A stretch of 64,000 nt of DNA from Escherichia coli (GTDB lineage Bacteria; Pseudomonadota; Gammaproteobacteria; Enterobacterales; Enterobacteriaceae). The stretch lies in the NCBI RefSeq assembly GCF_002854065.1, contig NZ_CP024147.1; one strand, 5' to 3'. Made by a program: the position numbers and the translations under genes. This document shows, in pieces, positions 5,530 through 21,221 of the stretch. The notes beneath the pieces are model-generated. The model saw only the letters and a list, made by a program, of their open reading frames with translations, was not told the DNA's origin and ran no database searches. Numbering within the stretch: the first letter of the stretch is position 1; each line of letters begins with the position of its first letter.

Positions 5530-5544
5530 GGTAATGACTCCAAC

Positions 5545-6048
5545 TTATTGATAGTGTTTTATGTTCAGATAATGCCCGATGACTTTGTCATGCAGCTCCA
5601 CCGATTTTGAGAACGACAGCGACTTCCGTCCCAGCCGTGCCAGGTGCTGCCTCAGATTCAGGTTATGCCGCTCAATTCGCTGCGTATATCGCTTGCTGAT
5701 TACGTGCAGCTTTCCCTTCAGGCGGGATTCATACAGCGGCCAGCCATCCGTCATCCATATCACCACGTCAAAGGGTGACAGCAGGCTCATAAGACGCCCC
5801 AGCGTCGCCATAGTGCGTTCACCGAATACGTGCGCAACAACCGTCTTCCGGAGCCTGTCATACGCGTAAAACAGCCAGCGCTGGCGCGATTTAGCCCCGA
5901 CGTATCCCCACTGTTCGTCCATTTCCGCGCAGACGATGACGTCACTGCCCGGCTGTATGCGCGAGGTTACCGACTGCGGCCTGAGTTTTTTAAATGGCGG
6001 AAAATCGTGTTGAGGCCAACGCCCATAATGCGGGCGGTTGCCCGGCAT
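5545..6048 (-). CDS. insB: IS1 InsB frame (transposase made as InsAB' by -1 frameshift)
   Basis: 167-aa [19 protein letters not shown]... identical in both IS1 copies; overlaps insA in the -1 frame. Confidence 0.9.
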
Positions 6049-6242
6049 CCAACGCCATTCATGGCCATATCAATGATTTTCTGGTGCGTACCGGGTTGAG
6101 AAGCGGTGTAAGTGAACTGCAGTTGCCATGTTTTACGGCAGTGAGAGCAGAGATAGCGCTGATGTCCGGCAGTGCTTTTGCCGTTACGCACCACCCCGTC
6201 AGTAGCTGAACAGGAGGGACAGCTGATAGAAACAGAAGCCAC
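5967..6242 (-). CDS. insA: IS1 InsA (zinc-finger transposition inhibitor)
   Basis: 91-aa [42 protein letters not shown] with CxxC...CxxC. Confidence 0.9.
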
Positions 6243-6275
6243 TGGAGCACCTCAAAAACACCATCATACACTAAA

Positions 6276-7037
6276 TCAGTAAGTTGGCAGCATCACCGTG
6301 TTGTCCGTGTTCATACCGGTGTGCCTTTGACAACGGTACTCCTTAGAAACTCTCTTCGGACTGTTGCCGAAATGTTTGCGGAACGCATAAATAAAATAAG
6401 ATGTACTGGCATAACCACATTGTTCGGCAATTTTATTGACTGAACCTTCTACGCGTATCAAATTTTTTGCGTGCTGCATTCTGGCATCTAAAAGAATCTG
6501 TGAGAATGTCGTTTGCTCTTGCTTAAGTTTTTTCTTCAACAGGCTTTCACTGATGTACAGGCAGTCACAAATATCTTTCAGCTTCCATGGGTGCGCCAGC
6601 TTCATGTTGACAATATTTCTCACTTTCCCGGAAACGGATAGCACACCGTTAGTTAATAGTGTAATGAAACCTTTGCATGCGGCAAAAATAGACAGGCAAG
6701 AAAAAAGCAAAAGTTCTGAAAAATTATGATGATTGCGTTCTTCCGAGTTGAGATAAGCAATCATTTCATTAAGCAATCCAGTCGGTACATTAGAAGCACG
6801 TAAAAACTTCGCAGGAACAGGCACCGTCACTGTCTGGATGTTAGTGCATTGTAGATATTTTTTAATGGTATTTTCATTAAATCCGATTTCTTTAAAATGC
6901 CGCTCATAAGGTTCAAAATGCGTACGAACAGCGTTATCTACCATCAGGATCTCGCCGTCAGAGAAGGCGTAATCTTTATCTAAAATGTTAGCGTTGAAGG
7001 CATGATGAATAAATATAACAGAACAAACGAGCGACAT
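6276..7037 (-). CDS. ydeO: AraC-family acid-resistance regulator; last 6 codons and stop supplied by the IS1 terminus
   Basis: 253-aa ORF with C-terminal AraC HTH region; reading frame crosses the IS1 junction at 6297/6298 and ends ...NTVMLPTY inside the IS1 end. Confidence 0.85.
   Translation of the reverse strand: MSLVCSVIFIHHAFNANILDKDYAFSDGEILMVDNAVRTHFEPYERHFKEIGFNENTIKKYLQCTNIQTVTVPVPAKFLRASNVPTGLLNEMIAYLNSEERNHHNFSELLLFSCLSIFAACKGFITLLTNGVLSVSGKVRNIVNMKLAHPWKLKDICDCLYISESLLKKKLKQEQTTFSQILLDARMQHAKNLIRVEGSVNKIAEQCGYASTSYFIYAFRKHFGNSPKRVSKEYRCQRHTGMNTDNTVMLPTY
6298..6306. repeat. 9-bp target-site duplication GTGTTGTCC (right copy) of IS1 copy 1, inside ydeO coding sequence
   Basis: identical to 5521..5529. 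Confidence 0.9.
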
Positions 7038-7111
7038 TTTATCTCCTTAAAACAATAAAGTTTTTATCGATACTTTTTTAACATTTCATATTTATAATTT
7101 GCTGTTTATTT

Positions 7112-7309
7112 TCAGTCTTGCAAACTATTGATAATGAAATGTGTAAGATCTCTTGCAATGCGACCCATTTCTGAAATGCCCAGCTGATCAATTGCCGAAA
7201 AAATGGCTATCAACGTAAGGGTCAGTAATAAGACAACCACAATTACAAACATGATTTCTTTATAGTTGTCTCTTTGCGTGATTTTGTTTTTCACTGTGGT
7301 CGAATGCAT
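7112..7309 (-). CDS. safA: small membrane protein connecting EvgS/EvgA to PhoQ/PhoP
   Basis: 65-aa ORF with one hydrophobic helix FVIVVVLLLTLTLIAIFSAI; immediately upstream of ydeO as in the safA-ydeO operon. Confidence 0.8.
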   Translation of the reverse strand: MHSTTVKNKITQRDNYKEIMFVIVVVLLLTLTLIAIFSAIDQLGISEMGRIARDLTHFIINSLQD

Positions 7310-18400: not shown

Positions 18401-20444
18401 GAATATCCGTATCGAAAATGAGCGTACCGCCATTCATGGCCAGTCCACCAATGGATTGCTCTCCCACGTTTACCGATGTGGTATTTTCAATGTCAGACTG
18501 CAACATCGCGTGAGTAAGCGCAGCGGTGTTGTCGCGTTCCAGAGTGAAGGTACTGTCTTTCAGTTGGGCAACACCGGCGAATTCAGTCCCTGTTGCATGT
18601 GTAAAGCCAAACATCTTGTCGGAGGATGACAGCTGAACTCGCATCAAGCCATCGCCTTTGAGCGCATTGGTCAGCGTGTAATCTCCTGCACTGTTCGTTG
18701 ATGCGAGAATGTCGAGCGTACCGGGGCTTGCAATGGTTACTTCACTCGACCCCATGCCCGTTACCCCATCTGCCGTATGAGACGCAATGGTCAGGAGGCC
18801 GTCATTGACCAGCGTTTTACCGCTATAAGTATTCCCTGCATTGAACACCGTATGGCCTGCATCATGGATCACTTTTCCGTCTTTATCGTCACCTGTAATC
18901 AGCATATCGACCTGGTAGCCGGCATCACTGTTATTAGTATGATTAAAGACAAAAACACCTTCGCCAGAGCCAAACTCTACTTTCGTCGCGTTGGTGATAA
19001 ATCCGGCATCTGCCGCCGCCTCACCGTGAGCTGCACCAATGTTTAGCGTTCCTACAGCAGGTTCAAAAACACCTAAGTAAACTTCTCCACCTTCGACATT
19101 CAGCGTGCCGCTATTCGTCAGGGTTAACGTACCCGTACCAGATGTCCCTACGTACATATTGAATGTTTCAAGAAGAGAGTTCTGCCCATCCACCCTCACG
19201 TCGCCCTTGCTTTTGTCATTGAGAGCTATCTGTGTATCACGCGCTTTAACTATACCTCCGGTGGTAATATTCAGTTCACCCGTGCCTAATACACCGACCT
19301 GTAGCAATTGGGCGTTAGTAGATGATGTCTTTAAATTCCAGAGACTATCCGTTGAAATATTAACTATCCCCTTACCGGAGGCATTTCCTCCGATAAATCC
19401 ATAGCCCGTTGAATTAAGGGTGGCACCATTACTGACATTTACGATACCGCTACCAAAATTACCGACATTGATACCCACAGTATCGAACGATGATGTCGCA
19501 TCCATCAGGTTCAGTGTGCCGATACCGCTTGCTTTATCGCCCAAAAAAGTAATATTTTGCGATACAAACTTACCGCCATCGCTAATATTGAGGTTTCCGA
19601 CACCCGCAACACCAATGGTGGTATAGACATTCTTATTGACCTCCCACATCCCCCCCGTGGTGATGCTGACATTCCCGACGCCGGTTTCTCCATAACCGAG
19701 TGAACTTCCTCCGTTGCTGACAACAAGCCCCTCATTACTGATATTCATTTCGCCGTGGCCGTCATAACCAAGATTAGTTCCGAGATTAGTGATAACGGAG
19801 TTCTTATCCTTAACAGTAATGTTGCCTGTGCCTGATTCTTTCATCCCCGCAGTGATAATTCCAGAATCTACTTTACCTTCACGCGAGACATTAAGTTCAC
19901 CGTCACCAGCATCACCGATATAGATATAGCGGAAAGCTTCGCCTGTTCCGAGGAAATTCCAATGCCCTTTATCGGTCACGTTGACGACACCGTGGGAACC
20001 GTCCTGAACGCCCACCAATGAATATTCTTTGTTATTAATTAGTCCATTATTGGAAATATTGACTGCGCCATTACCGAAATATCCATTATAGAGTCTGCGT
20101 ACCGTGATGACAGAGTCTTGATCCTGCACATTCAGGGTTCCGACACCGGTGGCATTGCCACCGATAATCGTATTTTCAGCCGTAACCAGCCCCCCCTCGC
20201 GAATAGTCGCCTCCCCCATCCCTTGATTACCAATTTGAAATTCAATTGCGGAATCATTATTTTTTATTAGCCACTCGCCACCCTTTTCAACGACAACCTT
20301 ACCATTACTGTTCGCTTGATATCCTAAAATGGCGACTATTGAACTCGTAACGTAACCCTTATCCGTAATATTTAATGAGCCCGTACCGTAACTCCCTATT
20401 TCGAATAATTCGGTCGTCAAAACCGAGTCCTCTCCCTCAACATT

Positions 20445-20453
20445 AACCGTCCC
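20445..20453. repeat. 9-bp target-site duplication AACCGTCCC (left copy) of IS1 copy 2
   Basis: identical 9-mer at 20445..20453 and 21222..21230. Confidence 0.9.
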
Positions 20454-20468
20454 GGTAATGACTCCAAC

Positions 20469-20972
20469 TTATTGATAGTGTTTTATGTTCAGATAATGCC
20501 CGATGACTTTGTCATGCAGCTCCACCGATTTTGAGAACGACAGCGACTTCCGTCCCAGCCGTGCCAGGTGCTGCCTCAGATTCAGGTTATGCCGCTCAAT
20601 TCGCTGCGTATATCGCTTGCTGATTACGTGCAGCTTTCCCTTCAGGCGGGATTCATACAGCGGCCAGCCATCCGTCATCCATATCACCACGTCAAAGGGT
20701 GACAGCAGGCTCATAAGACGCCCCAGCGTCGCCATAGTGCGTTCACCGAATACGTGCGCAACAACCGTCTTCCGGAGCCTGTCATACGCGTAAAACAGCC
20801 AGCGCTGGCGCGATTTAGCCCCGACGTATCCCCACTGTTCGTCCATTTCCGCGCAGACGATGACGTCACTGCCCGGCTGTATGCGCGAGGTTACCGACTG
20901 CGGCCTGAGTTTTTTAAATGGCGGAAAATCGTGTTGAGGCCAACGCCCATAATGCGGGCGGTTGCCCGGCAT
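20469..20972 (-). CDS. insB: IS1 InsB frame
   Basis: 167-aa translation identical to copy 1. Confidence 0.9.
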
Positions 20973-21166
20973 CCAACGCCATTCATGGCCATATCAATGA
21001 TTTTCTGGTGCGTACCGGGTTGAGAAGCGGTGTAAGTGAACTGCAGTTGCCATGTTTTACGGCAGTGAGAGCAGAGATAGCGCTGATGTCCGGCAGTGCT
21101 TTTGCCGTTACGCACCACCCCGTCAGTAGCTGAACAGGAGGGACAGCTGATAGAAACAGAAGCCAC
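20891..21166 (-). CDS. insA: IS1 InsA
   Basis: 91-aa translation identical to copy 1. Confidence 0.9.
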
Positions 21167-21221
21167 TGGAGCACCTCAAAAACACCATCATACACTAAAT
21201 CAGTAAGTTGGCAGCATCACC

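Follow-up and report, generated by a model that had tools for sequence, protein, structure and literature searches.

Two identical IS1 copies in direct orientation around the predicted dif site of an Escherichia coli chromosome

IS1 pairs in described systems

In Escherichia coli K-12, two identical copies of the insertion sequence (IS) IS1, namely IS1B and IS1C, lie in the same orientation around argF and other chromosomal genes (about 10.7 kb), a segment which we take to be the Tn2901 of the older literature. Here, a comparable arrangement is described in a 64-kb stretch of the chromosome of another E. coli strain (RefSeq assembly GCF_002854065.1, contig NZ_CP024147.1; hereafter the window), where two identical IS1 copies in the same orientation bracket a terminus-region interval that contains the predicted dif, the 28-bp XerCD chromosome dimer resolution site. 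As elements, the IS1 copies of the window resemble IS1B and IS1C in their length of 768 bp, insA/insB' layout, A6C site, terminal repeats and 9-bp duplications, and differ from them in their insertion sites. As a pair, IS1B and IS1C enclose cargo in a cryptic prophage region and neither copy has a matching 9-bp duplication, whereas the window pair has a separate duplication for each element and encloses native DNA of the terminus, dif included. The locus very probably represents two separate, simple and recent IS1 insertions into native DNA of the terminus region, which now form recombinable direct repeats whose recombination products would be purged.

Recombination within a same-orientation IS1 pair deletes the intervening DNA and leaves one copy behind (Raeside et al. 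2014, PMC4173774), and in the long-term evolution experiment about 70% of the large rearrangements arose by recombination between IS elements (PMC4173774). The IS1 deletions of that experiment are the same event as the one predicted for the window pair, yet they removed genes dispensable in the laboratory, whereas the window interval holds dif and its deletion product has not been observed. A second known route is that of IS1 adjacent deletions, such as those at nfsB, in which tens of kb were lost and the IS1 was left without a duplication (PMC10569738). They need one IS1 only, have variable endpoints and are independent of the pair in the window; the same signature is found in strain 100416 from the Gambia, the closest complete genome to the window, which is at least 99.9% identical over the shared segments (99.95%). 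Lastly, engineered dif deletions and dif-lacI-dif cassettes have produced the loss or the duplication of dif at this exact locus (PMC2680272); in the window, either could come about spontaneously by way of the two IS1 copies.

The nearest natural counterpart is strain 74-2 (NZ_CP050044.1), in which, as in the window, a same-orientation IS1 pair surrounds dif, hipBA, ydeP-safA-ydeO and most of an autotransporter gene. The 74-2 copies (positions 1707-2474 and 47111-47878 of the compared locus, L012) belong to an isoform about 97% identical to that of the window and are 7 nucleotides apart from each other. They occupy other insertion sites, and their interval of 44.6 kb includes a 28-kb island with two integrase genes adjoining dif; one copy has the duplication AGCGAAGCG, the other has none. 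Strain 74-2 is an independent natural case of an IS1 pair bracketing the predicted dif. In the literature searched, no report of IS copies bracketing dif was found, nor any paper on IS1 together with ydeO, hipA and deletion.

The IS1 copies and the dif site

Both IS1 copies lie on the minus strand, copy 1 at 5530-6297 (insA 5967-6242, insB' 5545-6048) and copy 2 at 20454-21221 (insA 20891-21166, insB' 20469-20972). Their 768 bp are identical, and the similarity extends past the element ends by at most 2 bp on the left and by 0 bp on the right. Each is flanked by an exact 9-bp target-site duplication, GTGTTGTCC for copy 1 (5521-5529 and 6298-6306) and AACCGTCCC for copy 2 (20445-20453 and 21222-21230). 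The span 5530-21221 measures 15,692 bp, with 14,156 bp between the copies, and no third IS1 sequence was found within the 64 kb. A preliminary description of this DNA had given coordinates, identity, orientation and both duplications, all of which hold on direct sequence comparison; it had named divergence or inversion of the copies as what would undo it, and the comparison returned 0 mismatches and the same orientation.

The four features that define the IS1 class are all present, that is, length and termini, insA/insB' with the A6C motif, the 9-bp duplication and near-identity to a reference. In each copy, an insA frame of 91 amino acids and an insB' frame of 167 are read from the minus strand, InsA matching profile positions 1-81 and InsB positions 76-199 of the NCBIfam IS1 transposase family NF033558. 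The A6C motif (AAAAAAC) stands at element position 307, within the insA/insB' overlap, in the layout of a -1 frameshift, and the termini are imperfect inverted repeats, GGTAATGACTCCAACTTATTGAT and GGTGATGCTGCCAACTTACTGAT, of the kind that is a hallmark of IS1 (about 23 bp). Against both IS1B and IS1C there is 1 mismatch in 768 (position 65). Both copies are apparently transposition-competent, as no sign of a defect is seen in either. The local AT content is 63% around the first insertion site and 59% around the second.

The dif site was searched for because filamentous prophages in two relatives sit at one exact point of the interval. The 28-bp sequence GGTGCGCATAATGTATATTATGTTAAAT is matched without mismatches on the minus strand at 13639-13666; no second site turns up in the window when up to 3 mismatches are allowed, and 0 matches are expected by chance. 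The site lies near the middle of the interval, 7,341 bp from copy 1 and 6,787 bp from copy 2, and 83 bp from hipA; in K-12, dif is 76 bp downstream of hipA, between yneL and hipA. The FtsK-orienting polar sequence (KOPS) GGGNAGGG occurs on the plus strand at 552, 1676 and 10762, all three to the left of dif, and on the minus strand at 16642, 17422, 25987 and 35026, all four to the right, so that the seven motifs of the window point towards dif and the strand switches there. The GC skew at 4-kb resolution has a trend consistent with a terminus at dif and is too noisy to place it; the KOPS polarity is decisive. With the 28-bp sequence, the KOPS convergence and the same position as the experimentally defined dif of K-12 all in place, the IS1 pair is seen to bracket the predicted chromosome dimer resolution site. 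That prophages have integrated at the same point in relatives lends indirect support to the view that this dif may be active with XerCD and FtsK.

These prophages are inovirus-like and carry Zot, GspD-like and replication genes; they are located at about 19441-36907 of the 100416 locus (L004) and at about 28250-37300 of the 6EVA locus (L001). In strain 100416 there are two tandem copies, with a dif sequence of 1 mismatch at their junction. The dif of the window is unoccupied.

Besides dif, the interval carries ydeO-safA-ydeP, fimbrial remnants, hipBA and most of an autotransporter gene, just as the preliminary description had stated; what that gene list lacked is that copy 1 lies inside ydeO and that dif is present at 13639-13666.

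Recombination between the copies and the fate of its products

As direct repeats, the two IS1 copies are open to RecA-dependent exchange, either unequal or intramolecular. One predicted product is a deletion of 14,924 bp, in which a single IS1 has GTGTTGTCC at one end and AACCGTCCC at the other; ydeN, this IS1 with its unmatched flanks and the first 175 or so codons of the autotransporter gene would remain. The reciprocal product would be a tandem duplication. The deletion had been proposed from the start, and its mechanism is documented (PMC4173774); its consequence was incompletely drawn, for dif would be lost too, and it stays a prediction.

Because dif lies in the interval, the deletion would abolish dimer resolution. 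About 15% of generations see the formation of chromosome dimers; when their resolution is completely defective, the cells filament, the loss per generation (k) is about 0.17, and roughly 15-17% of the cells become non-viable in each generation (PMC2680272). A derivative with the deletion would be Dif-minus; it would have unresolved dimers, SOS-induced filamentation and a disadvantage of about 15% per generation, and it would be purged. Such derivatives may well arise, only to be rapidly out-competed. The loss of hipBA might add a transient toxin effect. The tandem duplication, in turn, would place two dif sites in direct repeat, an arrangement that XerCD and FtsK should collapse quickly; given that a dif-lacI-dif cassette placed at the native locus is lost by excision at a rate of 20% per generation (PMC2680272), duplications are expected to be short-lived. 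On balance, the locus would recombine without its products persisting, and the IS1 pair would be effectively held in place. Exchange between the copies may even be more frequent here than elsewhere, albeit speculatively, given that dif-flanking DNA is a hotspot of spontaneous breaks and Holliday junctions (PMC8213236) and that the terminus undergoes hyper-recombination under some conditions (PMC5638614).

The scar expected from the deletion was composed of 1.5 kb of the ydeN-side flank, IS1 and 1.5 kb of the autotransporter-side flank, and searched for at a coverage of at least 80% in a collection of 5,426 complete E. coli genomes. It was found in none (0 of 5,426), the best matches being simple IS1 insertions near ydeN and ydeO; the check in related genomes suggested by the preliminary description has come back empty. 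Three genomes whose annotation shows ydeN followed by IS1, with no ydeO in the matched part, were discarded as scar carriers: in PI24 and S1-INA-02-B a simple IS1 insertion lies some tens of bp beyond the downstream end of ydeO, and 2018-166 has an unrelated deletion of safA-ydeP.

Several points weigh against the proposal of two recent insertions whose recombination products are purged. The absence of the scar fits counter-selection but is weak evidence and no proof, as none of the collection genomes carries both insertions. No deletion or duplication product has been observed, and all the downstream consequences are inferred. The 64 kb analysed are a part of the genome, and further IS1 partners may exist elsewhere in it. 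Finally, the copies being identical, the sequence is compatible with either order of insertion, and with one copy being the daughter of the other or not.

It is quite possible, if on the whole doubtful, that future change at the locus will come mainly from single copies of IS1 rather than from exchange between the two, through adjacent deletions with variable endpoints produced by intramolecular or abortive transposition. A case in point is strain 100416, where an IS1 identical to those of the window (L004 12997-13764) has no duplication and joins window positions 19329 and 27907, abutting a deletion that extends from inside the autotransporter gene to the end of lsrK; the junction corresponds to a deletion, associated with IS1, in which the 5' end of the autotransporter gene and the spacer upstream of it have been lost. 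Along the same line, the 74-2 copy that lacks a duplication abuts a truncated autotransporter gene, and the IS1-associated deletions at nfsB are of the same type (PMC10569738). Yet this route is compatible with exchange between the copies, both being available, and any adjacent deletion that reached dif would meet the same counter-selection.

Another reading, along the lines of the preliminary description, takes the interval as dispensable cargo, so that derivatives lacking hipBA and the EvgA-dependent acid-resistance genes would arise freely and then accumulate or become fixed. Mutants deleted for hipBA are viable, and natural deletions are common in this region: strain 2018-166 lacks safA-ydeP, 6EVA has a fusion of hipA and lsrK, and both 100416 and 74-2 have lost the 5' end of the autotransporter gene; moreover, IS1 x IS1 deletions of at least 8 kb have been fixed in laboratory populations (PMC4173774). 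Nevertheless, dispensability is unlikely. The interval contains dif, and losing dimer resolution is costly (PMC2680272); the natural deletions examined all spare dif, which is kept in 6EVA, 100416, 74-2 and K-12; an exact-seeded match to the dif region exists in at least 5,163 of the 5,426 genomes, and the scar in none of them.

A yet bolder proposal holds that the pair renders the dif region spontaneously excisable and duplicable, and that their recombination would constantly yield a filamenting, SOS-induced subpopulation that is Dif-minus and hipBA-minus and release a 14.9-kb circle (dif, hipBA and one IS1), which could re-enter any IS1-bearing replicon and in this way mobilise dif. If true, phenotypic heterogeneity or the transfer of dif would have a natural origin here in the lineage; we consider the proposal very improbable.

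Origin and surroundings of the insertions

Copy 1 lies inside ydeO, whose last 6 codons and stop are now read from the IS1 end (MSALAI replaced by VMLPTY). The resulting hybrid open reading frame (ORF) of 253 amino acids (6276-7037, minus strand) still matches the YdeO equivalog NF007407 at 596 bits over profile positions 1-248 of 253. Copy 2 splits an autotransporter gene of the ECSE_1600 family between profile positions 176 and 184 of 1806: the distal 90% is inside the interval (15549-20453, minus strand; NF011422 positions 184-1806 of 1806, 3708 bits), while the first 175 or so codons lie outside it (21222-21746, minus strand; NF011422 positions 1-176), in an ORF that, as listed, reads on into IS1 to 21195. 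An exact-protein look-up of this 183-residue autotransporter/IS1 fusion returned no record, and that of the hybrid YdeO matched the same lineage.

One IS1 isoform would have inserted twice, once into the last 6 codons of ydeO and once after about codon 176 of the 1806-codon autotransporter gene. When copy 1 and one duplication are removed in silico, the native YdeO of 253 amino acids, with the tail NTMSALAI, is restored; the same operation on copy 2 yields a single autotransporter ORF of 1806 amino acids. Each site is found unoccupied in other E. coli genomes, where the match falls into two pieces with the span of an uninterrupted site (1568-768-9 = 791 bp); in 100416, site 1 is empty, with a single copy of the 9-mer, and 70 nucleotides agree in full with the sequence obtained by in-silico excision. 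The genes of the interval are collinear with those of K-12. The separate duplications, the differing outer flanks, the empty sites, the rejoining genes and the K-12 order point to separate insertions, as the preliminary description had maintained in rejecting a composite transposon. Both insertions are likely recent, given the identity of the copies, the lack of other damage in the genes that they disrupt and the absence of the first insertion from a 99.95% identical relative.

A 15.7-kb composite transposon of the Tn9/Tn2901 kind, arrived as a unit, would offer the same architecture as IS1B-argF-IS1C, and both copies look transposition-competent; Tn9, too, consists of two same-orientation IS1 copies flanking cargo. 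That, however, is where the likeness ends. The outer flanks differ (GTGTTGTCC against AACCGTCCC), each IS1 having its own duplication where a unit would share an outer one, and the interior is not foreign, for it has the K-12 gene order with dif in its native position at the KOPS switch. The split genes rejoin perfectly across each IS1, and the 99.95% identical relative, which has the same interior, carries no insertion at site 1. Nor was the unit found at other locations: among 72,556 plasmid records, no IS1-bracketed copy of the 14.1-kb interval was found, and the plasmid matches to the interior proved to be mislabelled chromosomes or records with large chromosomal segments (pqqL to the fimbrial operon) devoid of IS1 brackets. 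A transposon moved as a whole is effectively refuted. In general, IS1 composite elements of such length transpose very poorly.

Equally remote is an assembly artefact in the form of a second copy misplaced or duplicated by the assembler, for, although misassembly typically arises at repeats such as these (identical over 768 bp), both copies are flanked by a perfect 9-bp duplication and the ORF that each interrupts rejoins in frame on removal, an independent short-read Logan contig (ERR3970133; 14,207 bp, 100% identical over the 10.8 kb retrieved) ends 27 bp inside copy 1 and, by its length and its autotransporter gene call of 1623 amino acids, about 24 bp inside copy 2 at the other end, and the NCBI assembly GCA_035821435.1 also has the ydeO-IS1 junction at 100% identity to the window.

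In the collection of complete genomes, the best identity over window positions 1-25000 is 98.4%, a value lowered by structural differences. IS1 is present within about 400 bp of site 1 (the 3' end of ydeO; window about 5130-6700) in 13 of the 5,426 genomes and within about 400 bp of site 2 (the autotransporter gene; about 20050-21620) in 22, at varied positions; IS1 has struck both small regions repeatedly in unrelated E. coli. At exactly either site of the window it was not seen in the 5,426 genomes, leaving aside LR-33, AR_0086, SCPM-O-B-12142 and CM185152, which have the same span. Strain 6EVA, initially taken to have IS1 at the same ydeO site on account of the same 1568-bp span, was rejected, as BLAST places its IS1 about 300 bp away, in intergenic DNA.

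Other differences were noted among the relatives. Relative to the window, strain 100416 has further deletions of 136 bp and 256 bp in lsrK and the fimbrial chaperone gene. In contig JAPQBK010000098.1 of GCA_035821435.1, an isolate of the same lineage as the window (L003 1-75), 75 nucleotides of foreign sequence abut the usher fragment, joined at about window position 12678; we take them to resemble an IS2 terminus, which would presumably make a further IS insertion in the interval. Two records labelled as plasmids, NZ_CP050167.1 (IncFIB/IncFIC, NDM-4; L005) and CP054253.1 (L006), hold long stretches of this chromosomal region, with pqqL-yddB-yddA-ydeM-ydeN-ydeO-safA-ydeP and an intact fimbrial operon, and are either F-prime-like captures or assembly chimeras.

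From family scans and the comparison with K-12, the gene order across the locus is yddA, ydeM, ydeN, IS1, ydeO, safA, ydeP, ydeQ, ydeR, usher fragment, chaperone, hipA, hipB and autotransporter, followed by copy 2 of IS1, the autotransporter 5' end, lsrK, lsrR and the lsr operon. All the genes of the interval described below are on the minus strand. The safA gene (7112-7309, 65 amino acids) has the same position as in K-12 and strain 100416, and ydeP (7557-9836, 759 amino acids) matches the equivalog NF007406 over its full length at 1829 bits. The remnant of a fimbrial operon (10170-13629) comprises ydeQ (10170-11084), ydeR (11144-11647), an usher fragment of 363 amino acids (11783-12874) that covers only profile positions 8-355 of 877, and a chaperone gene (12916-13629). 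Relative to intact versions of the operon there is an internal deletion (window 11647-13629): the usher is cut after about 363 amino acids, and neither ydeS nor the gene for the fimA-like major subunit, which in the intact operon lies between the chaperone gene and dif, is present.

The hipBA operon (13750-15338) has the gene layout of a type II toxin-antitoxin system, hipB (15072-15338, 88 amino acids) being directly upstream of the HipA kinase gene (13750-15072, 440 amino acids) and overlapping it by 1 nucleotide at 15072. HipB scores 184 bits against its equivalog NF007271 (cut-off 79), and HipA matches the N-terminal domain TIGR03071, with the Pfam domains Couple_hipA and HipA_C also recorded.

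Outside the interval, a complete Tn3-family transposon of 5,640 bp (TnAs1/Tn1722-like; window 21840-27479) lies 93 bp upstream of the autotransporter start codon, with 38-bp inverted repeats and TGTAT(T) direct repeats at its flanks. Alongside tnpA (24480-27446) and a resolvase-like ORF, it has a gene for a methyl-accepting chemotaxis protein with a PAS domain (22029-23606). The transposon is 100% identical to copies on many plasmids of Escherichia, Salmonella and Klebsiella and is absent from strain 100416. Further along, lsrA (30796-32330) is divided between two frames that overlap (30796-31602 and 31596-32330), as a frameshift would produce; the annotations of 100416 and 6EVA likewise mark the gene as frameshifted.

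To sum up, the elements, their architecture and the predicted deletion are already known from textbook IS biology, and the only non-obvious point is the presence of dif in the cargo. The finding has little importance beyond this strain and is, at the same time, a clean example of two recent IS1 insertions. It also illustrates that the terminus around dif is structurally hypervariable even among 99.95% identical E. coli, which differ there by IS1, a Tn3-family transposon, prophages at dif and small deletions. For the strain itself, dif in the cargo changes the expected fate of the recombination products, as losing hipBA or ydeO-safA-ydeP via these repeats means losing dif too. Since dif would be lost in the same deletion, hipBA and ydeO phenotypes would be confounded, and the filamentation, SOS response, fitness and persistence of any derivative would be dominated by the defect in dimer resolution and not by the loss of hipBA or of acid resistance.

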